Shown here piece after piece: positions 2,141 through 59,587 of a stretch of DNA of 64,000 nucleotides. The notes below the pieces were generated by a model. The model was given only the letters and a program-made list of their open reading frames with translations. It did no database searches and was not told where the DNA came from. Position 1 is the first letter of the stretch. Each line of letters opens with the position of its first letter. The DNA is from Candidatus Spyradenecus sp. (GTDB taxonomy: Bacteria; Verrucomicrobiota; Kiritimatiellia; RFP12; DVOR01): assembly GCA_045613865.1 (NCBI GenBank), contig JAZLBT010000013.1, positions 26,846-90,845 on the forward strand, read 5' to 3'. The position numbers and the translations under genes are program-made.

Positions 2141-5100
2141 TTACTTTGCCGAGCCCGCTCGGGAAAGTCGCATGTCAACCCAAACACCTGTAGCATCAGC
2201 ACTGCAATCTTCCGACTGCTTGACAAAGCTAAAGATAAGTTGCTTTGTACCAACAGGAATATCAACATTAACAAGTTGCTTCACATCTGTAGGCTTAATG
2301 CCAAGACGTTGGAAAATCTGCTTGCCATCAGCAAAAATGGTAAACGTTGAAGTACCTTCATTTGTATTTCCTGTTTCCATGCCGACGTGGCCAAGCACTT
2401 TCTCCCAAGTGCCATCAAGATCAATCGTCCATTGAGACCCTACGGTAACCTTGCGGCAACGCGGATATTCCTGGCCATCAACCAAACGTGTTTCATCGCA
2501 AATTGCCTTTGTTTCATCTGCGAGCGGTGCAGCGTTGATATCCTGATGGAAATCAATTTCTGCAGCAGAAGCATACTTTGCACCATTCTGCGAAGACGTA
2601 AAGACGAGACGAACGTAACGGCTCCATGTTGTATCAAAGTTAATCGTACGAGCTTCTGGCTTTTCAAAGGTTGCAAACTCACCTTCTGCAACCTTAATGT
2701 ACTGACCAGGGAAACGAGCAGTCCAAACTTCATAACCCTTCACTACACCATTACCAAGATTCTGGCGCGGAAGATACGAAACACCATTTAACGGATAGAG
2801 GCCATTCATATCCACATCAATCGCGTGCGGATAATCAACAGGAAGTTTACCATCCTCCTGCCAATAGGTATGCCACATCGTTTCATCCGTGCCATCAAAG
2901 GCATCCTTTGCCGGGCAGCTATTTGCCCAAGAAGAAGCCGAAACAAGGAATTCTGCCTTATCGAGTTCATTCGTGACTTCAGGCACAGGATATGGTTCCG
3001 TTGCTGCGATGGTGTCTGCGAGCGCGGGATTGACACGTACAAGCAAATCAACAGCTTCACTCGTCGAGCGACGATGCAACTTCACATGAAGCATACCATA
3101 GCGATCATCTGCATCATAATACCAGCCCTGACGTGCATTCTTATAAACCGATACATCGTCAAGCTGAAGCAGTTCCTGACCATCCACAAGCACCTTTAAC
3201 GGCTTTGTGCACATGTGAATTTCGAAAACATAGCAACGCTTTTGAAGCTTTCCTTCGAAGTCACCCACTGCAGGATTCAAATGCACCATAATATCGCCCG
3301 TGCCTTCAACTTCAGGAGCAGTACACTCAACAACCTGCTTCGAATATGCCCCCTCTTGATAAGCACGCGTTTCACCATCATCTTCGTAAACAACAAACGA
3401 TGCATAACCCTTTGGGTAAATATCAAACGTCAATGGATCTGGCGCCTTTTCACCCATGCTTATCATTTGCGGATACATCGGAAGAATCGAGCCTGCCTTC
3501 ACAAAAATCGGAAGCTTCGCCAAATCAATGGGATACGCTGCAATCGTTGTAGGCCCCACCACACGACGACCATCATTATAATCAATCCATGTGCCTTCAG
3601 GGAGATAGATTTCCTTCTTCCACCCCTTATTCAACTTCATCGAATTATAAACCGGTGCAATGAGCACTTCATTACCAACCATAAATTGATACTTTGTTGT
3701 TTCATCCCACGTATAACGATCATTCGGATAATTCCAAAAGAGCGGACGAATGATTGGTTCACCACAATCCCAAGCATTACGCATATACGCATAGAAGAAA
3801 GGCGTCATCCGCATCTTATGATAAAGCGCATCACGGAGCAACGAACGATACGGCTCATCATAACTCCACGGACCCTTATTCAAATGGCTCCACCCATTCA
3901 TTACATACATTGCCGGCGTCCAGCACTTCCACTGCATATCACGCAAATACGTTTCAGGGCTACCACCGAAAATACCATCAACATCTGTTGTTGCATATGC
4001 CTGACCACTCATTGCAGAACACGTCAACGTTGGAATATGATAGCGAATCAAATCCCATGAACCATACTGGTCACCCGTCCAACAAATACTATAACGTTGT
4101 GTACCTGCCCAACCCTGACACGTCCAAACAAATGCACGACCATCCGAATTCTTTTCAATTCCCTCTGCCGCCACACGGTTACACTCCAAGCCATGCTGAT
4201 AAGCTGGCCCCGACCATGCCACGTCAATCTTCTGCACACGCGTACCCGCTGTACCCACTTCCCAATCAATGAGATCAAGCGCACCTTCCGTCCAAAGACC
4301 CGTGCGGAAACCCAAATCCCAAAGTGTACTCACCGTATGAGCCAACTGCATGTGACCACTGCCATAGCCATCATTCACAAGCAACCAACCACCCGGCATA
4401 TCATGCTCACGATACTTCTTTGCCACCTCAATTGCTTGCTCATGTGTCACTTCCACATAAGTGCCATCAACATCCTGCTTAGGATCACGCGTATCCGGAT
4501 CACGCGTCATATAAGCATCCGCGTCACCGAGTTCAAGCCCCCACATCGGAATAAAATTCGGACGCCCCGTAAACAACGTATAAAGATCAATCGTCTTCTT
4601 AAAATCGCCGCCTATGAAATAAAACGCATCAAAGCGACGTTCACGATGAAACGTCTTCACAACGTCCTCACGCGAAAAATCATACGCCCCCACCGAGAAT
4701 GTATGACGAAGAACACCATAGCCCTTATTCGTGATATACCACGGAGCAGGATTAGGGTGCCCCCCTTCATCCCAATTGCAGTCCGCGACGATATCAATCT
4801 TACGGCCATTATGGCAAAGGTAACCATTCTGCTGGCCACCACCATAGAAGAACTCATCCTTCGCAAGTTTCAATGTCTGCACAGTCTCCACATCACCCAC
4901 ATCAATCGGTGCGGCCTCCTCGAAAATAACCTGCCCCAAATCATCCATCACCGAAATTGTTGCGTCCGCTTTCTTCAAGGTTACCGTGATATCTGGAGTT
5001 TCAAAGGTGTATGTCCCCGCCTCGCGATTATCACGAAACGTCACACGACTATTATCCTCCTTTGCAGCCTCAACGAGAATTTGCGCCTTTTCAGGATTAT

Positions 5101-5389
5101 TCAACGGATCCGTAAAGTCTGCCGTTGCATACGTCTTTACATTCCCATCCTTATCCTTGATAGGATTCCCTTGACGATCACGATACGGTGCCTGCGTTGT
5201 CGGTGCCGCGAGTAAACGGAAGACACGCGGAGTATAAAACTGTAAACGGAGCGTGATATTATTTTCCGTAATAATATCAAACGACTTTGACATTCCGCTT
5301 TGAGGAACCATCTTTAATACACGCCCAGGCACTATTGCAGACGCGCAAGCCGTCGCAAGCACCATCGCACCAAAAATCCATTGCTTCAT
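2141..5389 (-). CDS. Secreted glycoside hydrolase family 31 (alpha-glucosidase/alpha-xylosidase type) with a C-terminal F5/8 type C (discoidin) domain.
   Basis: N-terminal signal peptide. GH31 core motifs (…VNDGYGSG…, WTGDQYGSWDLIRYHIP, DVDGIFGG). C-terminal discoidin-like ~150 aa (WHTYWQ…YVRLVF…AAEIDF). Confidence 0.8.
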   Translation of the reverse strand: MKQWIFGAMVLATACASAIVPGRVLKMVPQSGMSKSFDIITENNITLRLQFYTPRVFRLLAAPTTQAPYRDRQGNPIKDKDGNVKTYATADFTDPLNNPEKAQILVEAAKEDNSRVTFRDNREAGTYTFETPDITVTLKKADATISVMDDLGQVIFEEAAPIDVGDVETVQTLKLAKDEFFYGGGQQNGYLCHNGRKIDIVADCNWDEGGHPNPAPWYITNKGYGVLRHTFSVGAYDFSREDVVKTFHRERRFDAFYFIGGDFKKTIDLYTLFTGRPNFIPMWGLELGDADAYMTRDPDTRDPKQDVDGTYVEVTHEQAIEVAKKYREHDMPGGWLLVNDGYGSGHMQLAHTVSTLWDLGFRTGLWTEGALDLIDWEVGTAGTRVQKIDVAWSGPAYQHGLECNRVAAEGIEKNSDGRAFVWTCQGWAGTQRYSICWTGDQYGSWDLIRYHIPTLTCSAMSGQAYATTDVDGIFGGSPETYLRDMQWKCWTPAMYVMNGWSHLNKGPWSYDEPYRSLLRDALYHKMRMTPFFYAYMRNAWDCGEPIIRPLFWNYPNDRYTWDETTKYQFMVGNEVLIAPVYNSMKLNKGWKKEIYLPEGTWIDYNDGRRVVGPTTIAAYPIDLAKLPIFVKAGSILPMYPQMISMGEKAPDPLTFDIYPKGYASFVVYEDDGETRAYQEGAYSKQVVECTAPEVEGTGDIMVHLNPAVGDFEGKLQKRCYVFEIHMCTKPLKVLVDGQELLQLDDVSVYKNARQGWYYDADDRYGMLHVKLHRRSTSEAVDLLVRVNPALADTIAATEPYPVPEVTNELDKAEFLVSASSWANSCPAKDAFDGTDETMWHTYWQEDGKLPVDYPHAIDVDMNGLYPLNGVSYLPRQNLGNGVVKGYEVWTARFPGQYIKVAEGEFATFEKPEARTINFDTTWSRYVRLVFTSSQNGAKYASAAEIDFHQDINAAPLADETKAICDETRLVDGQEYPRCRKVTVGSQWTIDLDGTWEKVLGHVGMETGNTNEGTSTFTIFADGKQIFQRLGIKPTDVKQLVNVDIPVGTKQLIFSFVKQSEDCSADATGVWVDMRLSRAGSAK

Positions 5390-5958
5390 AAAGACCTCAT
5401 CTCATAGAAGGAATAATAAACAAAATGAACACATCACCATATAATATACCATATATATTATAAAAAGAAAAGTAAGAATTAATAGCGAATGGAATATTGA
5501 ATATTGCACAATATAACCGCGGGGGTAAGAAGAGTACTTCTCAAAAGAAAGGATGTCAAAGAGGAAAGAAGAAGGATCATCAGCTTACGCCCCCGGGGGA
5601 CGGCGCGCCAAAATGAAAAATGTCAGCGAATCCGTTATAATGAAAGTTTCCAAACAAACCAAAATAAAGGACGCTGACATGGGCAATTATACCAAAAAAC
5701 GGGAGCATATTGACTACACAATGCGAAAAATTATTCAAAAACTTTGGAATTTTGATATTGATAGCCCAAAACACTGCTCAATCAAGTAACTTTCTGCTAT
5801 TTTGAGGATGCCGTATACAACGCATCGCGATGAAATTAAACAACACTCTACCACAATATCCCCATCAATAAAAATGTCGCCGCCAAGCGACATTTTCACT
5901 CTGTCACTAACCTTTATCTAATGCAAAATCAAACACGGAACGTTTGGCAATCAAACAT

Positions 5959-6050
5959 GGTGCGGTTTGAGCGTCATTCAGGTGCGGTTTGAACGTCGTT
6001 TAGGTGCGGTTTAAATGACACGTAAGTAAAGGTGCTTTAATCACGACATT
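5959..6050. repeat. Four tandem, progressively degenerate ~22-bp direct repeats (GGTGCGGTTTGARCGTCRTTYA). The last copy overlaps the 3' end of the 6037..7653 gene.
   Basis: Copies read directly: 5959-5980, 5981-6002, 6003-6024 and 6031-6050 (the last degenerate). Preceded by overlapping palindromes CAAAC-N7-GTTTG-N4-TCAAAC at about 5928-5956. Confidence 0.8.
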
Positions 6051-7653
6051 CACTCAGTGACATTTGATAATAAATCGTTCCCCGTGGAAATGTTATGAGA
6101 GGATATGCTGCTGGCATCTGAAGGTCGACCTGATAAATGCCACTTGCCTCCTCATCTCTGAAGATCACAGGGGCATCATAAACGACTTGTTGCGTTTCTC
6201 CAGAAGTTGCCCACACCGTCAAATGATAGGTTTTTTCTGCGTTAACAACGCTCTCCTCCGGTAAGATTATTTTAACCCTTACTAGTGGACCTTCTGCTTC
6301 AAGTAGAAAACGATCAAATCCTACATCAAAATCTAACGTACGAAATCCCTCTAATGTTGGTTCAAGTGGAAATTCAAACAATTCAAACGCATTTAACTCG
6401 TTTTCTACATCTTTTACACTCGAATCAAACTTCACCATTGCATCAGGCGCATTAACCACGATAATCTGTTCGTCATCAACTTCTACTCTTTCGGCAACAA
6501 GTGACGATGTAGGATTGGTAGGCGTTCCAGTAAAACACGCACAAAGCGTCGTCTCCATATCTACCACTCCCTCCGTATCAAGTGGGTAGCCATGCAGTTG
6601 TGTTTCTTTATTTAGACGTAAGATACCTCTTGTTATTTTTCCAGGTAAGACAAACAATTCATCTGGATAGGAAAAACTCGTATCATATGCTACACCTACC
6701 GATTTCATCGGCGTGTTGGAGATAGGCTTCCCCCCACGTGAGCGGATTTCTCCTCCATCCATTGTCACCGTTGTTGCACGGAATAACGAACATCGTTCCT
6801 TAACCCCCGACAGATCCTGTAATCGTAATCCTCCCGATGTCACAGAAGAGTCCACAACAACGTTCACTGTTGCTCCCTCAAGTCGAACAACTTTCGCCTC
6901 CGCAAGCGGACTAATAACAGGATTTGAATCCAACGTTCCGTCACTTGTTTTAAACAAAAGATTCCCAGATGCTAATGTTACCATTGCATCAATTACATAC
7001 TCTGTCCCATAGGACACTGGAAAATAGAGAGGTGCATAAGGTGTCGCAGGTTTTGCAACAAGACTTGTTCGCCCAACGAGCGTAAGCGAAGAAGATTTTT
7101 TATCTGCCCATGGTGCACGCGCGATATGAATCTCCACCTTAAGAGGATTCTCCTGCGTGAATCCCTTTGATGGAGCTGCTGTAATTGCGCTATGCCAAAC
7201 AGCTGCATATGATCCTACTTCTGAGCGTGCAATCAATGCGTTTTCACCCTCAAAAAGAATCTTTAAATTTGTCTTATATCCCTTGTTTTTTGGGCGGTCA
7301 ATAACGATTGGAGCAATGGTATAATGCGTATAATCAGAGTCGCTTGACGTTACAACTGATTGACTTGTTGGAGCAAGGTGACATTGATCAAGAATAAGCG
7401 TAACGTTTAAATCTTCTGTTGCATTATTTTTCATGACAATGCAAATTGAAGCATCTACAGGCTTCCCATTTGTTGTAATACGATATGTTCCAGACGTTTG
7501 AATTCTATAATTGTATTGTCGCACACCAGAGGCATTATTCAAGGGTAACTCCGATGTTCCCTGTGACAATGACCAACCGTTAAGAAAAGTTGCCACATCT
7601 GCTTTTAACATTGTTGCTAAAAGTCCAAGAAACACTAGGAGTGTATACTTCAC
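6037..7653 (-). CDS. Secreted hypothetical protein.
   Basis: N-terminal signal peptide MKYTLLVFLGLLATMLKA. No recognisable catalytic motifs. Last gene of the long minus-strand array. Confidence 0.5.
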   Translation of the reverse strand: MKYTLLVFLGLLATMLKADVATFLNGWSLSQGTSELPLNNASGVRQYNYRIQTSGTYRITTNGKPVDASICIVMKNNATEDLNVTLILDQCHLAPTSQSVVTSSDSDYTHYTIAPIVIDRPKNKGYKTNLKILFEGENALIARSEVGSYAAVWHSAITAAPSKGFTQENPLKVEIHIARAPWADKKSSSLTLVGRTSLVAKPATPYAPLYFPVSYGTEYVIDAMVTLASGNLLFKTSDGTLDSNPVISPLAEAKVVRLEGATVNVVVDSSVTSGGLRLQDLSGVKERCSLFRATTVTMDGGEIRSRGGKPISNTPMKSVGVAYDTSFSYPDELFVLPGKITRGILRLNKETQLHGYPLDTEGVVDMETTLCACFTGTPTNPTSSLVAERVEVDDEQIIVVNAPDAMVKFDSSVKDVENELNAFELFEFPLEPTLEGFRTLDFDVGFDRFLLEAEGPLVRVKIILPEESVVNAEKTYHLTVWATSGETQQVVYDAPVIFRDEEASGIYQVDLQMPAAYPLITFPRGTIYYQMSLSECRD

Positions 7654-13234: not shown

Positions 13235-16200
13235 TTAGTTTGGCATAATGATAATGCGATCAATCATAACATTTGCGCCAGTCGCCTTACGAATCATAAG
13301 ACGAAGTTTCCCATCAAGAAAATCCTCCATATCTACTGGTAGCGTTAACCAATAGATTCCTTGTTCATTTGCTTCGTGTAACGGAATATCAAAGGGGCGG
13401 TTATGTTCAAACTGTCCTGTCGCAGTACGATGTCCTTTGTCCGGATCACGGAAACGTATAAGTAATTTCCCACGAACGTTTGTAATGTCTGAAAGTGTGA
13501 GATATAACTCATCCCCTACCCAATATTGACCAAGGTTATCACTCCACGTACGAACATTCTTACCCGTAAGTGCATAACTGCCAGTAAGAAGCTCTGCGCG
13601 ATCTCGTTTCTTGTTATAAGTCACATCTTGAAATTTTTCATTAAGAGCAGCTGCACACTCAATATAGACAACGGCAGAAGCAAATTCCTCTGGGCGCGGA
13701 GCAAATTCTACCTTTGGCGGTTGAAGAAGATCCTTAAACCATTCCTCTGTGACCTCTTCACTAGGTGCAAAATCTGATGATGCAACATATGCAAGCAAAG
13801 AACGTTTGAGCTGACGTGCTTCGGGGCGATTCATTTCTAAATCAAAGCCCGAAACCAACACACGTCCAGCTCCCACCTTAACCTCAAAGAGCATTGCTGC
13901 TAATTGTGGTTTATGAAAATCCACCACGGGTAAAGCAAGAGGAGTAAAAGATTCACTCACATTGTCCAACTTAAAAGTCTTACCACGATTCACAAGATAA
14001 TACCACTGCCAATCTTGCCAATCTTCAGTAGGAAAGGCTTGAAATGCAGCGCTTTTCTCTTGAATTAACATACCCAACGTTGTCGCGCGCTGTCCAGGGA
14101 ACCATGTTGTACTCCAATAGACAGGTTTGAACGATGAATGAATAAGCTTCTTTGGATTACCCGCATCCGATGCATTAAAGAGTACCGGCTGCCCAACACG
14201 TACGGCCTCAAGTGCGGTCTCCACATCTGTTGCATAAACCACACCATCTGGAATTGGCGTCTCCACTCCATCAGGATAAACCCAAATATTCCAACGATTC
14301 TTACCAAAAGTTAAAACCTGCTTTGAGGGAACAGGAAGCTTATTCAAAGGGAATGTCAGCGTTTCAACCTTGACAAGAGACCCCGTAGCACCCTCGGCCG
14401 TCACAACACCAGATTGTCCTGCAAAGGACCACGGAATTTCACCCTTGTACATTGGACCATAGTTATAGAGATAAAGGTCTACAGTGAAGACTTCATTGGA
14501 AGACCAAATATCCTTATTGAAACGTGCAAGACAGACCATATCATTGAAGAAATCCTTTGCATGGACCATCTCTTCAATCCCAGGTTTCACATCGTAGAAA
14601 CTATCCAACCACCCAATTAAAGCCTCACCCTGACCAGAATAATCTTGAATTCCTAAAAGCGAAATGCCTGCACAAGATGGGGTGCGAAGGAAGCTCTCAA
14701 TTTCTGCTTTATATACAAGTCGATTTGTTTTAAGAGAAACACGCGCAAAGTCTGGAACAAAACGCAAGACTCCGGCCTTCTCACTTGCCTCTCGCAACTT
14801 CTCCAAGTTCCATGGGCGTAAAATCCCTGTATACTTTGGAATCTCAACATCAAAATTAGGATAAACAGGCCATTGACCAATCTCATGTGCAATAGTCGGC
14901 AATTGCGTCCGAGAAAAAGCACCTTCATAATCCCAATTCGTTCCAGGTTGAAGCACTTCGCGAATCATACCAATCCCTGGATAAGCATGCGTAACAAGAA
15001 AGTCATCTGCAGCCGTAATTTGACGTGCCGTGGACGCAGCATAGAGTCGACGATTATCGTAGTCTTTGCATGCCTGCATCCACTCTCCCATAAACTTAAA
15101 ATTAGAGCTGCCAAGCTCATTACCTATCGAGAGCGAAAGGAAAGAAGGGGCATTACCATACGCATCAAGAATACGACGTAATTCAAGTTGAACAAAGATG
15201 TCAACCGATGCAGGGCCCATACCAAGCCCTTGCAAATAAGGAAAATCCTTTGTCATCCATCCATCAATCCAAATACCGGCTTCAGGAGAAAGCATCATTC
15301 CCACTTCATCGGCAGCATCAAAAGCAGCTTGTGGTGGACACCACGTATGGAATCGCAACTGATTTGCCCCCTCATCCTTTTGAGCTTGAATGATTTTCTT
15401 CCATCCCTCTTTATCCATTACAGGATAACCTGTAAGTGGAAAGTGACAGTTTTCAAGATTTCCGCGAACAAAGAAGGGCTCTCCATTGAGGTAAAACTTA
15501 TTCCCCTTTGCCTCTAAGGTACGAAACCCGAAACGGAACTCCTTTTCATAACCTTGAGCCTCAAGTTTCAACCTATAAAGATTAGGATTTGACGGGGACC
15601 ACGGAGAAACCGATGAGACAACCTTAACCACACACTTCACTGTTTCGCCCGAAGATTGTGACCAACCCACTTGTTCAAGAACAAGCCCATCAAGACCTGT
15701 TACAACAAGGTCTTTTTGAAGAGTCTTCTTCACTTCAACAAAGAAACACTGATCTTGCAATGGCCATGGAGTAAAGAGGCGCGCCGAACGTAAAGGATTC
15801 TGAGGACGAATTTCAAGCTTCCCAAGAAGACCATTCCAACGCGTTTGCATCGCATCTCCATAACTATGTGCTTTTTCGCCAATAGGATGGATTAAACGAT
15901 TATCAACCGTGATTGAAAGTGTATGCTCTCCCACTGTTAAAGGAGGTAATGGATAAACATGTGGCGTTGCCAAAGAATCACATGTGTCAACAAGATTACC
16001 ATCAACAAGAACCGTTGTCTTCCAAAGCGCGCGCTCAAGAAAAAGCTCTAATGGTTGACTTGCCATTTCTTCATCAATCGTAAACGTACGCGTATAGGTT
16101 GCCTTACCCACAAATTGGTGTTTTGGTGTAAGCGCACCATAAACAGCCTCCTGTGCAGCAAGTCCAAGTTGTGCATCTCCCAACGTCGCGGGAAGTTGAA

Positions 16201-16315
16201 TCGCCATAGAAGAGGCGTCATCAAGTTTCACCTGCCATTCTCCCGCGATTGAGAATGCCCAAAGGGATTTTACCAGTGTTGCCATGAATAAAAATAGAGA
16301 TGTTCTCATTATCAT
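13235..16315 (-). CDS. Secreted glycoside hydrolase family 2-like enzyme (beta-galactosidase/beta-mannosidase superfamily).
   Basis: Signal peptide. GH2 sugar-binding N-domain pattern. FRTLEAKGNKFYLNGEPFFVRGNLE, then SIGNELG (acid/base-like) and TIAHEIGQW (nucleophile-like). Family assignment is by motif only. Confidence 0.55.
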   Translation of the reverse strand: MIMRTSLFLFMATLVKSLWAFSIAGEWQVKLDDASSMAIQLPATLGDAQLGLAAQEAVYGALTPKHQFVGKATYTRTFTIDEEMASQPLELFLERALWKTTVLVDGNLVDTCDSLATPHVYPLPPLTVGEHTLSITVDNRLIHPIGEKAHSYGDAMQTRWNGLLGKLEIRPQNPLRSARLFTPWPLQDQCFFVEVKKTLQKDLVVTGLDGLVLEQVGWSQSSGETVKCVVKVVSSVSPWSPSNPNLYRLKLEAQGYEKEFRFGFRTLEAKGNKFYLNGEPFFVRGNLENCHFPLTGYPVMDKEGWKKIIQAQKDEGANQLRFHTWCPPQAAFDAADEVGMMLSPEAGIWIDGWMTKDFPYLQGLGMGPASVDIFVQLELRRILDAYGNAPSFLSLSIGNELGSSNFKFMGEWMQACKDYDNRRLYAASTARQITAADDFLVTHAYPGIGMIREVLQPGTNWDYEGAFSRTQLPTIAHEIGQWPVYPNFDVEIPKYTGILRPWNLEKLREASEKAGVLRFVPDFARVSLKTNRLVYKAEIESFLRTPSCAGISLLGIQDYSGQGEALIGWLDSFYDVKPGIEEMVHAKDFFNDMVCLARFNKDIWSSNEVFTVDLYLYNYGPMYKGEIPWSFAGQSGVVTAEGATGSLVKVETLTFPLNKLPVPSKQVLTFGKNRWNIWVYPDGVETPIPDGVVYATDVETALEAVRVGQPVLFNASDAGNPKKLIHSSFKPVYWSTTWFPGQRATTLGMLIQEKSAAFQAFPTEDWQDWQWYYLVNRGKTFKLDNVSESFTPLALPVVDFHKPQLAAMLFEVKVGAGRVLVSGFDLEMNRPEARQLKRSLLAYVASSDFAPSEEVTEEWFKDLLQPPKVEFAPRPEEFASAVVYIECAAALNEKFQDVTYNKKRDRAELLTGSYALTGKNVRTWSDNLGQYWVGDELYLTLSDITNVRGKLLIRFRDPDKGHRTATGQFEHNRPFDIPLHEANEQGIYWLTLPVDMEDFLDGKLRLMIRKATGANVMIDRIIIMPN

Positions 16316-16331
16316 TTCTCTCTTTCGTGGT

Positions 16332-16362
16332 TAAAAAAGGGTAGCGAGTTTCCCCCTACCCT
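16332..16362 (-). terminator. Rho-independent terminator after the 16390..17925 gene.
   Basis: On the minus strand, hairpin GGGTAGGGGG…CTACCC is followed by TTTTTT. Confidence 0.6.
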
Positions 16363-16389
16363 CCGACATGCAATCTTTGTTAATAGAAC

Positions 16390-17925
16390 TTATTCAACAG
16401 CTCGCAACTCGACTTTAACAAAAGGCATTTCCTCATCATTGTCATTCGTACGAGGCAATGTTACAATAACACTCCCACCCTCATAACCTATTGAAGCATT
16501 AGGAATCTGATCTAGTGCAACATAGTCAGCCGTAGCGAGGGTGGCGATTGTTGTTGCACGCGAAATATAAAGTCGACCTGCACGTTTGGTCGCATTTGAC
16601 AAATTAGAGGATGCAGGACCTTCAATCGTTAAGACCATCTTATGTGCTTTTGGAGCAATTGCCTTAACATAAAGCTTTTGTTGCTCACCAAGCGTAGGAT
16701 CCATATCTAACAAAAAGGCGTTAAAAGTTTTTTCGGTAAGCTCTAAACCATTGGACAGTGCCATTGACCGTAATGTTGTCTTAGCGCTAAGATTTTCCGT
16801 TAAATCAACATTATAACGCGATACCCAATCAGCAAAGAGCGTGTAATTCGGAGAGCTTAAATCCAAGAATGATTCAAAACCACCAACATTCAAACTTGTA
16901 AGCGAAAGAGATTGCAACGTTACAATTTTTTCTCGCTCTTTAATTTGTGCACTATAAAGACCGCCAGCATCAGCAGAGAAACCAATTGCATTCCAAGAAG
17001 TAAATGCAGTCGTATCAGCTTCAAATTCGGTTGCATCAATAGCATAGAGCCACTTTCGTGCCGCTTTAGATATTTCCTCGTTATCAATGGATTTAAAATC
17101 CATACGATAACCACCACTTGTACTATCCATTTCCCATGTATAGCCGAGTCCTTCTGTTAGACACAACCAATCATCGGATTCAGGATTAGAATATTTTCGC
17201 ACATAAATAGCATAGGCTGTCGTACCTTCTGGGACAATATCCTCATGGCCACTTGCTCGATAGGTGTAAGATTCTATCTTAACATCAACACGACCACTCC
17301 CTACATCCCTATAGGAAATAGGAGATTTAATCCACACATATTCATTTGGATCATCAATTGTTGCTGCAGCTTTTACTCGAGCCACATAGAAATAGTCATC
17401 TTCTCCAACATAAACACCAAGCTTTGCTGCAAGCGGAGTTTTCATTTGAATACGGTCATCCGCGGTTCTATAGAGCTTACGTATTACATCGATCTGTTGT
17501 CTCGAGGTTGGCGTAAAACGCATTGAGAGAAGGATTTCTCGCGGAAAAACATAGTTTGATTCTTTTGGTGCAAGCGAATAAGGCGTATAAGTGCCATTTT
17601 CCGTCTTGCCGATTTTAAAGCACATAAAGGTTGTCTCTGAAAGTGTATTTCCTTCAAAGCCAAGATAAGAGGAGCCATTATCATCGCCCTTCACACTAAA
17701 GGAGCTCTCTTCTTCTCCCTGCTGCGGATTTAAAATAAACCAAGAATCAGGTAACTCTACGGGATTCCCAACCGTTAAACCCGTAAAATCATAAGCATTA
17801 CTTGTGCTCAAAGGAGCATTCAATTCTTGAGCCTTACACAGTTGTGTTGCGAAAAACGTCAACACTAGGCACCCTAATTGTATGCCTAGCATCCAGATTC
17901 GCTGAAGGGGGGTAAATACTTTCAT
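16390..17925 (-). CDS. Secreted hypothetical protein.
   Basis: Signal peptide with hydrophobic core. No identifiable motifs. Confidence 0.45.
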   Translation of the reverse strand: MKVFTPLQRIWMLGIQLGCLVLTFFATQLCKAQELNAPLSTSNAYDFTGLTVGNPVELPDSWFILNPQQGEEESSFSVKGDDNGSSYLGFEGNTLSETTFMCFKIGKTENGTYTPYSLAPKESNYVFPREILLSMRFTPTSRQQIDVIRKLYRTADDRIQMKTPLAAKLGVYVGEDDYFYVARVKAAATIDDPNEYVWIKSPISYRDVGSGRVDVKIESYTYRASGHEDIVPEGTTAYAIYVRKYSNPESDDWLCLTEGLGYTWEMDSTSGGYRMDFKSIDNEEISKAARKWLYAIDATEFEADTTAFTSWNAIGFSADAGGLYSAQIKEREKIVTLQSLSLTSLNVGGFESFLDLSSPNYTLFADWVSRYNVDLTENLSAKTTLRSMALSNGLELTEKTFNAFLLDMDPTLGEQQKLYVKAIAPKAHKMVLTIEGPASSNLSNATKRAGRLYISRATTIATLATADYVALDQIPNASIGYEGGSVIVTLPRTNDNDEEMPFVKVELRAVE

Positions 17926-32583: not shown

Positions 32584-34275
32584 AATCGAAATTCCTTAAT
32601 GGGGGATTGGAAACAACATAATATTATCATAATATATATATTAATGTCCAACGTTTTTTCATATATATCAGTCTCCAACGTTTTTCACATAGACATAGAC
32701 GTAACATAGAGAAAGAAAAATCTTCCAAAGCCCTCATTCATTCTCCAAAAAATCCCATCCAAAAAGAGGAAAATACTCCTTCATCCTTTACTCTTTTACC
32801 CCTACTTTTAACACAGTTTTGAACGCTAAGAAAAAAGCAACACTCTACGACGCATAGGAATACATTAACCTATTCAACTTAAATGAGATAACGTAAATTA
32901 AAGAAGCCCTTTCTCTACTACCGCTTCATCTTGTTGATAACTTGTTCATAAACCTCCATTTCAATCCCTATTGTATCAGTTTAACGAGTTTTATACTATG
33001 AGGTTTTAGGCGGAATCATTTTTTTGTAGGACATTTTTTACGAGTGCGAAATAGTACATTCTGAATAAGTTTGTACTATTCTTTTTTATGGTGAATAAAT
33101 TGTTGAAATAAAGTATTGCTAGTCGAATCTTTGCGGCACGATTGGTGGTAGTACAAATGGTTGAAAAATTGATACCTATTGATTTGAAGATCAAAGCAAT
33201 AGGGTTTGACGCTCAAACCAAAGGGTTTGACCTTCAAATCAATAGGTATTAATTCTTCATTATTCCGCACTATATTTGCCGAGCCATAACTTATACATTT
33301 ATAATAACTTATCTTGAGTATTTTATGGCCAGCAATTTTAAGCTTAAAATCAGTACAATTTTTTTGGGGGCCAACACTTTTAAGGGGAAAATGACAAGCG
33401 GGGAAAATTCTTAAATAGTACAATTTTTGGGCGGGGACTTTTTAGACCTGTTTAGAAAATTCTAGAAAATAGTACAAAGCCCTGAAGAACTGAAACAATA
33501 GGGTTTGATTTTACCTCCTAACACGTCTCTCTATAGATCTCACAACAGATTGTAAAATAAAGAACTTATTCCATGTGTTAATAATTATTCAAAAAAAGCA
33601 GTCTTACGCCTCCCAATCTCAATCTAGCCAACGAAATAAATGATAATTTCCCCTTTCTCCCACGACAAATCTTCCAAGGAAATTAGAATAAAGATAACTT
33701 TTTTATCCATTCATTTCTCATCTCCATCCATTATGACACATCGTCACTTTTCCTAAACAAATATTACAGAACATTTTATGCAACGAAATATTTTTTAAGA
33801 ACTGTAAGAATTTCTCTTGACTCTCTTTCGCTCAATTTGATACCATGCGTCTACCTTTTACCCAATCGACAGGAATAGTACCCGGCAGGGCCGCGTTTTT
33901 ACGCAAACCCGTAAGGCCCGGCGAAGCATCCTTATGAGTGTCGTTTTGATGCGCACGAGTTCGACTAAGGTAAAAGGTTATTTTTTTCTACGCACTTCTT
34001 CTGCGTTATTTCACCTATTGAATTGCCCAATTGTAATTCACCCCTTCCCCCTCATACTCCAAACAATACAGTTTCTAACGCGTTGATATTTCTAGCGTAA
34101 GAAAATTCCTCCGCATTGTTTTGCGACTTTTGCGATTTAAATTTTCAATTATGGCCATTTAAGGTTGTAGAGGGGCAACTTTCTTATTTGCGTGTTGTTT
34201 ATATTTATGGTATAATTTAAAGCAATTTGAATATGAAGGAGATTGCATTGGCGTCTCTTTGAAGGAGTATTATTT
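32584..34275. promoter_or_regulatory. 1.7-kb AT-rich ORF-free intergenic island carrying several short-repeat families. Candidate divergent regulatory region, replication origin or ncRNA locus.
   Basis: The six-frame track shows no ORF longer than 60 aa. It lies between a 14-gene minus-strand array and a >13-gene plus-strand array. The repeats are detailed in the findings. Confidence 0.6.
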
Positions 34276-58706: not shown

Positions 58707-59092
58707 CTGTTAAGCACTTGAATTAACGTTTCATGCTTTGAGTCACGCGAACACTTGATGACAACATTGGATTTTTTGTTGTTACGAGCAACACGTTCAA
58801 ACGCAGCATCAAATTGAGCAAGCGAAGCGAAGGGGCGCTTATTTAACATAATACCGCAGCCCGGTTGCGTCTTCTTGTTGTAAACAACAATATCGATGCT
58901 TTCAATTTGTTCTGTCGAGGAAGAGGAGCTATTACCCGAGGGTGCAAGTGCATCAAGGTAAGCGAGTACGTCTTCCTGTTTGAGCGTCACGACGAAGAAG
59001 ATGATGAGCTGGAACACAACGTCAATCATTGGCGTCATGTCGAGTGCGACATCTTCAGAAGGTTTACGTCTACTTTTTTTAGCCATCGTCAA
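58661..59092 (-). CDS. exbD: Biopolymer transport protein ExbD/TolR (copy 2).
   Basis: DMTPMIDVVFQLIIFFVV N-terminal transmembrane motif. About 140 aa. Confidence 0.8.
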   Translation of the reverse strand: MTMAKKSRRKPSEDVALDMTPMIDVVFQLIIFFVVTLKQEDVLAYLDALAPSGNSSSSSTEQIESIDIVVYNKKTQPGCGIMLNKRPFASLAQFDAAFERVARNNKKSNVVIKCSRDSKHETLIQVLNSCSKYGMTNLAIMTM

Positions 59093-59098
59093 CCTCCC

Positions 59099-59587
59099 TT
59101 ACTTCTTATTTTTGCTACGCGACTCAGCCGATTCCTTCATACCAAAGAAGGAAAACTTCCAAAGTCGTTGCATTTGGCAGATATCCATCAAGCGACGCAC
59201 ATCCTTGTGGTCGGTATTTTTATCTGCACGGATCATAACAGGGACATTATTGCCGCGGCGCTTAACGATTTGCTGAAGGATCGCCGCCAATTGGCTATCG
59301 CTAACGACAGCACCATTGACAGAAATACAGCATCCCTTACCAGTGAAGAACTCGGTTGCCTTGCTATAGGTCATGACTTCGAGGACGACAGGCGCATTAT
59401 CCTTATACTCATCCTGCTTGAATTCGGGACCATCCTTAGCATCGGCGAGCACGATATCAGGGTTGACTGATTCAGCCGTCTTAAGCGTCACGACGAAGAA
59501 GATAATGAGCTGGAACACAACGTCAATCATTGGCGTCATATCCAAATTCGCACTATCATTTTGTCGTTTAGATTTTTTCTTTGCCAT
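59099..59587 (-). CDS. exbD: Biopolymer transport protein ExbD/TolR (copy 1).
   Basis: Same N-terminal motif. The first ~55 nt of the ExbD core are almost identical to copy 2. Confidence 0.8.
   Translation of the reverse strand: MAKKKSKRQNDSANLDMTPMIDVVFQLIIFFVVTLKTAESVNPDIVLADAKDGPEFKQDEYKDNAPVVLEVMTYSKATEFFTGKGCCISVNGAVVSDSQLAAILQQIVKRRGNNVPVMIRADKNTDHKDVRRLMDICQMQRLWKFSFFGMKESAESRSKNKK

Follow-up and report, generated by a model that had tools for sequence, protein, structure and literature searches.

The spacer ahead of a GH31 glycoside hydrolase gene in Candidatus Spyradenecus sp. contains a degenerate array of 22-bp repeats, which raises the question of what these repeats do, or once did, between two minus-strand genes. 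A first-pass annotation, made from the DNA sequence, had described four tandem copies sharing a half-site with a palindrome near 33 kb of the same DNA, and had suggested that a common regulator, or an iteron-binding initiator, acts at both places. The array was analyzed within the whole 64,000-nucleotide stretch that contains it (hereafter the window) and was compared with related loci, referred to below by L numbers. The original observation was partly confirmed, as the repeat is real and smaller than described. Its interpretation also stood in part: the sequence link to 33 kb holds, and the functional inference is without support. The array is neither a replication origin nor a proven regulator site, and it is probably a worn copy of the palindrome-based repeat present at 33 kb.

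Anatomy of the 22-bp array

Tandem Repeats Finder places the array at 5959–6012 (period 22, 2.5 copies, 90% matches, score 87), and a repeat search returned copies at 5959, 5981, 6003, and 6031 with 100, 86, 68, and 64% identity to copy 1, respectively (Table 1). The first two of the four copies reported previously fit the consensus given for them, but the third is partial, with homology limited to its first ~12 nt and the Tandem Repeats Finder array ending at 6012, and the fourth is a poor match. That last copy had been placed inside the 3′ end of the neighboring gene; it does cover the stop codon and last codons of the 538-aa gene, but only as a weak and displaced unit. In the other direction, the 22-bp phase runs farther upstream than had been described, with 22 bp between AATCAAACACGG (5927) and AATCAAACATGG (5949). 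The palindromic motifs reported just before the repeats are present as CAAAC(5930)-N7-GTTTG(5942)-N4-TCAAAC(5951). Written in rows of 22 bp, the DNA from 5927 to 6052 comprises approximately six units of falling quality.

The best surviving dyad at 5.9 kb is GTTTGGCAATCAAAC (5942–5956), in a unit that reads GTTTGG-CAA-TCAAAC and has one mismatch to GTTTGA-N3-TCAAAC. The right half is partly eroded in the 5964 unit (GGTTTGA-GCG-TCATTC) and eroded in the 5986 unit (GGTTTGA-ACG-TCGTTT), while both halves are eroded in the 6008 unit (GGTTTAA-ATG-ACACGT); the units are spaced 22–23 bp from center to center. Because the right half-sites are worn (TCATTCA, TCGTTTA, and ACACGTA), the units at 5.9 kb are no longer dyads, and no palindromic fold was found for the array (DNA fold z = -0.76). 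When the 17-mer GGTGCGGTTTGARCGTC was searched with up to three mismatches, five matches were found in the window versus 0.25 expected, three of them at the array. The best-kept block of the array, GGTGCGGTTT, extends past the motif shared with the 33.2-kb locus and includes GGTGC, which is missing from the units there.

Table 1. Coordinates of the repeats, genes, and other features discussed in the text (positions in the window).
Feature	Position	Strand	Description
GH31 glycoside hydrolase, 1082 aa	2141–5389	-	F5/8-C and NPCBM domains
Small-gene cassette relic	5499–5841	+	343 bp; 40-bp leader (5499–5544) and ORF78 (5553–5789); read as a relic
Intrinsic terminator hairpin	5871–5896	-	Arms 5871–5880/5887–5896, 6-nt loop, then TTTTTATT
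Two older units	5927–5958	.	Same 22-bp phase; AATCAAACAYGG at 5927 and 5949
Repeat copy 1	5959–5980	.	GGTGCGGTTTGAGCGTCATTCA; holds the 13-mer common to 33207–33219
Repeat copy 2	5981–6002	.	GGTGCGGTTTGAACGTCGTTTA; 19/22 identical to copy 1
Partial copy 3	6003–6024	.	GGTGCGGTTTAA, then unrelated sequence
Weak copy 4	6031–6052	.	14/22 matches, 6-bp displacement
538-aa signal-peptide protein	6037–7653	-	GTG start after AGGAG; no Pfam domain
21-nt inverted repeat, left arm	32961–32981	.	Partner 33488–33508, 19/21 complementary
Composite palindrome	33167–33254	.	88 nt; three G[GA]TTTGA-N3-TCAAA dyads, 21–22 bp apart
21-nt inverted repeat, right arm	33488–33508	.	Partner 32961–32981

Genomic setting and conservation

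The spacer that holds the array is 647 bp long and lies between two minus-strand genes. As annotated in the first pass, the stop codon of the 6037–7653 gene is at 6037–6039 and the array lies 570–663 bp from the GH31 start at 5389. A feature beyond that description is the minus-strand intrinsic terminator, ~140 nt from the stop codon of the 538-aa gene. Since the array is located between this stop codon and the terminator of the gene, it is 3′-UTR DNA. The GH31 promoter must sit in 5390–5550, parted from the array by the terminator and by the gene relic described below, and the AT-rich stretch at 5430–5500, which is the divergent promoter region of GH31 and ORF78, is more than 400 bp from the array. 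The genes of the window are housekeeping genes in the chromosome of a gut-type Kiritimatiellae bacterium, and relatives of the 167-aa lipoprotein, GH31, and PheT of the window are found in Kiritimatiellae/Kiritimatiellia MAGs. A comparison of the 538-aa protein with 5.8 billion clusters yielded a single exact copy and a single relative, the latter at 34% identity, and the six syntenic neighbors of the 538-aa gene encode proteins with 64–79% identity to those of the L001 relative. The 538-aa product seems to evolve fast as a secreted or surface protein, and it is restricted to this lineage.

Located 85 bp from the array, on its GH31 side, is a segment that, in our reading, is what remains of a mobile cassette carrying a small gene. 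The DNA at 5499–5841 is 82.5% identical to a segment of an unrelated polysaccharide-biosynthesis locus on metagenome contigs L179–L182, and the cassette is positioned at 4947–5288 of L179, 96–544 of L183, and 11026–11070 of L175. The 40-bp leader, GAATATTGCACAATATAACCGCGGGGGTAAGAAGAGT, is conserved in four contexts, namely the window, the L179 group, L183, and L175. ORF78 shares 70% identity with P0243, and a search of 1.84 billion representatives returned four homologues; the window copy is truncated and broken by a stop codon, and the homologue P0246 aligns through that stop codon to 5843, where similarity ends. The ORF78 family has no significant match in Pfam, NCBIfam, or PHROGs, and an assignment as IS30-like, considered on account of a PYTT.RDE.K motif that recalls the IS30-type helix-turn-helix, was rejected with the same three collections. 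The fuller cassette copies on L179–L182 are not accompanied by such an array.

Conservation of the array in related genomes, which the first-pass annotation had named as a test of its reading, was not found. On L001, a terminator and a tRNA gene come straight after the gene for the 535-aa homologue of the 538-aa protein, and repeats are absent. The GH31 orthologues on L173–L175 (81, 79, and 75% identity) are preceded by a contig end, a TetR gene, and argS with a tRNA, so the neighbors differ in every relative examined, and neither related sequence nor a GTTTGA cluster was detected in these three upstream regions. The regions upstream of pheT orthologues differ too, and the closest of them is without the array, as are the 27.5 kb of the closest relative assembly (L002, L173, and L176). 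On the available data, the array is lineage-specific and the junction prone to rearrangement.

Relationship to the palindrome at 33.2 kb

The 13-nt identity with the 33.2-kb palindrome noted in the first pass is exact: GGTTTGAGCGTCA occurs at 5964 on the plus strand and at 33207 on the minus strand, and it is the sole 13-mer common to the array and the rest of the window. By our estimate, ~0.3 chance matches of a 13-mer are expected anywhere in 64 kb, and the match is notable only because it lies inside another array of 21–22-bp period. The 33.2-kb palindrome is near-perfect (DNA fold z = -9.9), with dyad centers 22 and 21 bp apart. Both loci are built from units of the GGTTTGA-N3-TCA(AACC) type at a spacing of 21–23 bp, or approximately two helical turns; the units at 33.2 kb are good dyads, and at 5.9 kb this is true only of 5942–5956. 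Five of the seven window matches to the dyad GGTTTGANNNTCAAACC (up to three mismatches) fall within the two clusters, and nowhere else in the window is GTTTGA packed as densely as in these two. The GTTTGA density at 5.9 kb, four in 100 bp, was attained in 0 of 200 shuffles. In a gapped local alignment, three successive units match in register over ~70 nt; the score is 91, whereas random segments of the window give 60 ± 11 (p ~0.01–0.02 for a comparison examined after the fact). With this unit-for-unit alignment and common spacing, the sequence link is stronger than had been claimed. The expectation of half-site clusters beyond the two loci was not borne out, as the GGTTTGA 7-mer occurs 13 times in the 64-kb window versus 11.4 expected. 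Similarity outside the 13-mer is modest, and on sequence grounds we regard the link between the two loci as plausible, not overwhelming.

The inverted repeats that bracket the 88-nt palindrome are 506 nt apart, and each arm carries CAATAGGG(T/A)TTGA. The 548 bp from 32961 to 33508 may represent a MITE-like unit; there is no clear target-site duplication at this locus, and the unit as a whole is not repeated elsewhere in the window. Other repeats occur in the same non-coding island. The sequence TAGTACAA is found four times at 33071–33477, some copies forming inverted pairs, and five times in the window versus 1.1 expected, and a 27-bp tandem repeat (32634–32691, ~2.2 copies of ATATATATCAxTCTCCAACGTTTTT) is located at the kinase-gene end of the island. 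Pairs of TAGTACA/TGTACTA are also present in intergenic DNA of L175 (10800–10920), beside a 22-bp array. A chromosomal origin at 33 kb was considered and rejected, as GC skew tracks gene strand without a lasting switch and DnaA boxes are at chance level.

Arrays of similar period in other Kiritimatiellae loci

Kiritimatiellae loci that had been fetched via protein homology, and not chosen for repeats, contain further arrays of this kind. In their intergenic DNA, units repeated three to four times at a period of 21–23 bp were found at 1723–1804 of L004, 3153–3230 and 16076–16149 of L006, 10631–10711 of L175, and 4746–4836 and 12344–12406 of L178. The L178 array at 4746–4836 consists of dyads with a 22-bp period and AAACCCGTACGGGTTT units and is located 170–250 bp upstream of pheT. 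Several of the Kiritimatiellae arrays are composite palindromes (DNA fold z = -7.9, -8.3, -4.0, and -6.5). The arrays of L006 lie beyond the 3′ ends of genes and represent one ~95-bp element at two loci, nearly invariant over ~70 bp, with one copy ~120 bp after the stop codon of uvrB. An exact 283-bp tandem duplication (15867–16433) surrounds the palindromic array downstream of uvrB in L006, and this duplication is possibly an assembly artifact caused by the repeat.

A census of arrays with a period of 22–23 and a score of at least 50 resulted in seven arrays in the 186 kb of Kiritimatiellae loci plus the window, one array in 1,064 kb of viral control loci, and one array in the mixed metagenome loci (205 kb, pattern matches excluded). 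At the control rate, ~0.3 arrays would be expected, and we estimate a Poisson p < 1e-4 even with five independent loci. We treat the excess as a lead and not a result, the controls being unmatched for phylum or intergenic content. Tentatively, and with more doubt than confidence, we propose that these arrays constitute a possibly undescribed intergenic class in Kiritimatiellae, in which three to five dyad units are set at a 21–23-bp pitch, often as a 90–100-bp composite palindrome, with sequence that is specific to the genome and one element at several loci. Such a class could comprise a novel type of non-autonomous mobile repeat or the binding arrays of an architectural or partition-like protein found across the Kiritimatiellae, with the 5.9-kb array as a decayed member and the 33.2-kb palindrome as an intact one. 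The 5.9-kb array matters little alone, being a decaying 3′-UTR repeat with no sign of GH31 or replication control. The wider pattern is that 22–23-bp arrays, often palindromic, are many times more common in the sampled Kiritimatiellae than in control DNA. If they form a dispersed family or are sites of a DNA-binding protein, they would be a new example of structured intergenic repeats in poorly studied phyla, and the arrays would offer a way to track down the transposase or protein responsible for them.

Broader searches for the motif itself returned no relatives of the array. A metagenome scan for GGTGCGGTTT-N12-GGTGCGGTTT identified 46 loci, none of which is the 5.9-kb array; they have no neighboring gene family and no Rfam family in common, and were set aside as unrelated tandem repeats that happen to hold the 10-mer. 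Scanning viral sequences for GGTTTGA-N3-TCAAACC gave single, chance-type matches only, and a literature search on the 10-mer, or on the truncated terms Kiritimatiell and palindrom together, found nothing relevant.

Likely origin of the array

The explanation that we favor, and to which we would assign a nearly even chance, places the array among the eroded copies of a repeat class typical of the lineage and resembling REP/BIME or MITE elements; the array itself most likely has no function. The REP/BIME elements of enterobacteria and pseudomonads are extragenic and often follow gene 3′ ends. The array is placed likewise, with the stop codon at 6037 on one side and the terminator at 5871–5896 on the other. 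Such elements also resemble the arrays described here in having imperfect palindromic units (good dyads at 33.2 kb, but at 5.9 kb only at 5942–5956) in short arrays, genome-specific sequence, and one element at several loci. The last of these properties is shown here for L006, with one element at two loci in 18.5 kb, and the window has only two related loci in 64 kb, too few to establish dispersal in this genome. The two kinds of repeat differ in their dimensions, as the dyads described here are 15–17 bp long at a 21–23-bp period, whereas REPs are ~35 bp long with alternating orientation and longer linkers. No RAYT-type (Y1) transposase was found among the ~40 ORFs of the window with Pfam, and the copy at 5.9 kb consists of direct repeats that have lost dyad symmetry. 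The likeness to a MITE lies in the 33.2-kb palindrome being bracketed by 21-nt inverted repeats in surrounding DNA that is non-coding and AT-rich, but that locus is without a clear target-site duplication, and no terminal inverted repeats are present around the array (5927–6052).

As an eroded repeat of this class, the array could have formed in the following way. The repeat type would consist of short arrays of 15–17-bp dyads, here GGTTTGA-N3-TCAAACC, placed 21–23 bp apart, with the 88-nt palindrome as the intact form in this genome, and the two loci would share a common descent or mechanism. At 5.9 kb, a unit would have been deposited or copied repeatedly in a single phase (5927–6052), with the youngest slippage event giving rise to copies 1 and 2 and half of copy 3, after which the right half-sites would have decayed. 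The array would thus lie in non-essential 3′-UTR DNA at a junction presumably scarred by mobile DNA. At most, it may retain residual binding by a putative dyad-recognizing protein or have a minor effect on the mRNA 3′ end.

Alternatively, the array could be a neutral slippage duplication in a 3′ UTR whose likeness to the 33.2-kb palindrome is coincidental. Only 2.5 copies are good and identity drops away from them, GGTTTGA is not enriched in the window, a 13-mer match is estimated to arise by chance ~0.3 times, relatives are without the array, and the array has no fold, all of which such a duplication would accommodate. We nevertheless consider it unlikely, because the match falls within one of just three intergenic tandem arrays that Tandem Repeats Finder detects in the window and the period of the two is identical, the units align in register over ~70 nt, a single phase extends over approximately six units that include the almost intact dyad at 5942–5956, and 22–23-bp-period arrays are over-represented in the Kiritimatiellae class. 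We judge it improbable, and more so than slippage, that the dyads at both loci are operators to which a dimeric protein binds cooperatively on one face of the helix, regulating GH31, the 538-aa gene, pheT, or the kinase gene. The geometry is suggestive: dyad-symmetric units are approximately two helical turns apart at both loci, the three 17-bp dyads at 33.2 kb with their 21–22-bp spacing have the cooperative-dimer arrangement of lambdoid OR/OL triplets and tandem ARG boxes, and the 22-bp-period dyads of L178 lie 170–250 bp upstream of pheT. However, OR/OL and ARG boxes differ from these loci, where no repressor gene adjoins and the 5.9-kb copy is off-promoter with its right half-sites lost. 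Where operators place dyads near a promoter, the terminator and the 343-bp relic come between the array and the GH31 start, at least 540 bp away. No regulator gene is adjacent, the regions upstream of the GH31 orthologues and of the closest pheT are without the array, and similar arrays in L006 sit after gene 3′ ends. A DNA-binding protein shared by both loci is conceivable, but the regulator or iteron initiator put forward in the first pass is at odds with the terminator and relic in between, with the failure to find the array in relatives, and with surroundings that contain no regulator, initiator, or partition gene. A sigma-54 promoter and a pho-box half-repeat were also compared with the units by eye, and neither fits.

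A role in RNA was weighed as well, in which the threefold minus-strand motif AAACCGCACC would be a site for an sRNA or an RNA-binding protein, or would serve as a C-rich element for Rho loading or stability. Use of the terminator at 5871–5896 would mean that the array is transcribed, and the minus-strand fold is marginally more stable than that of shuffled sequence (z = -2.2). We hold this role to be highly improbable, however, as the fold signal comes mostly from the terminator hairpin, the array is not conserved, and Rfam provides no match: its window matches are three tRNAs only, and the best sub-threshold match in 5350–6100 (E = 0.096) is driven by the same hairpin. A tRNA-derived or att-site origin, considered as L001 has a tRNA at this position, was rejected; the units are unlike a T-arm or acceptor by eye, and ARAGORN finds nothing. 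A CRISPR array was rejected on the grounds that the copies are head to tail without spacers. A further reading would derive the array from a plasmid or phage replicon that had integrated here: its repeats would then be iterons, recognized by an initiator, or part of a partition centromere, recognized by a centromere-binding protein. A 22-bp period of direct repeats is the classical geometry of iterons and of type II centromeres. With three to five repeats of ~19–22 bp at a pitch of ~22 bp, the arrays resemble both the four dyad-symmetric iterons at the lambda origin and plasmid iterons such as those of R6K, RK2, and pSC101, and the mobile-gene relic is only 85 bp away. Of the iteron hallmark of at least three direct repeats of 17–22 bp in helical phase, the array presents only the weakest form. 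Against this origin, no Rep, Par, or integrase domain was found in any neighboring ORF, searches for Rep with Pfam, NCBIfam, and PHROGs being negative for ORF78 as well. The DnaA box TTATCCACA is absent from 5390–6100 at up to one mismatch, and no AT-rich unwinding element was found next to the repeats. By blastn, there is no match in collections of 72,556 plasmids and 50,697 phages, and the unit array is unmatched in viral contigs. The copies are degenerate, the flanking genes are syntenic housekeeping genes in chromosomal surroundings, and the fuller copies of the relic cassette on L179–L182 have no such array. An iteron role for the array is unlikely, and we give an integrated replicon hardly any chance as its source.

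Other repeats in the window and related contigs

Runs of the heptamer AATTACG (GAATTACGAATTACG...) were observed at 4900–4990 of L176, 4500–4600 of L178, and 3396–3450 of L179, in intergenic DNA that includes the region upstream of pheT; this is another repeat common to several related contigs. At least seven groups of JGI metagenome contigs, unrelated to one another (L007, L011, L013, L018, L021, L028, L033, L037, L041, L042, L044, L048, and L050), carry three- to four-copy arrays of TGGTGCGGTTT at an 11-bp period, with no common neighboring gene and no Rfam match. In the window, a 62-bp direct repeat with 95% identity (58980–59041 and 59481–59542) is contained in two adjacent minus-strand frames, which by eye are tandem paralogues with ExbD/TolR-like N-termini.
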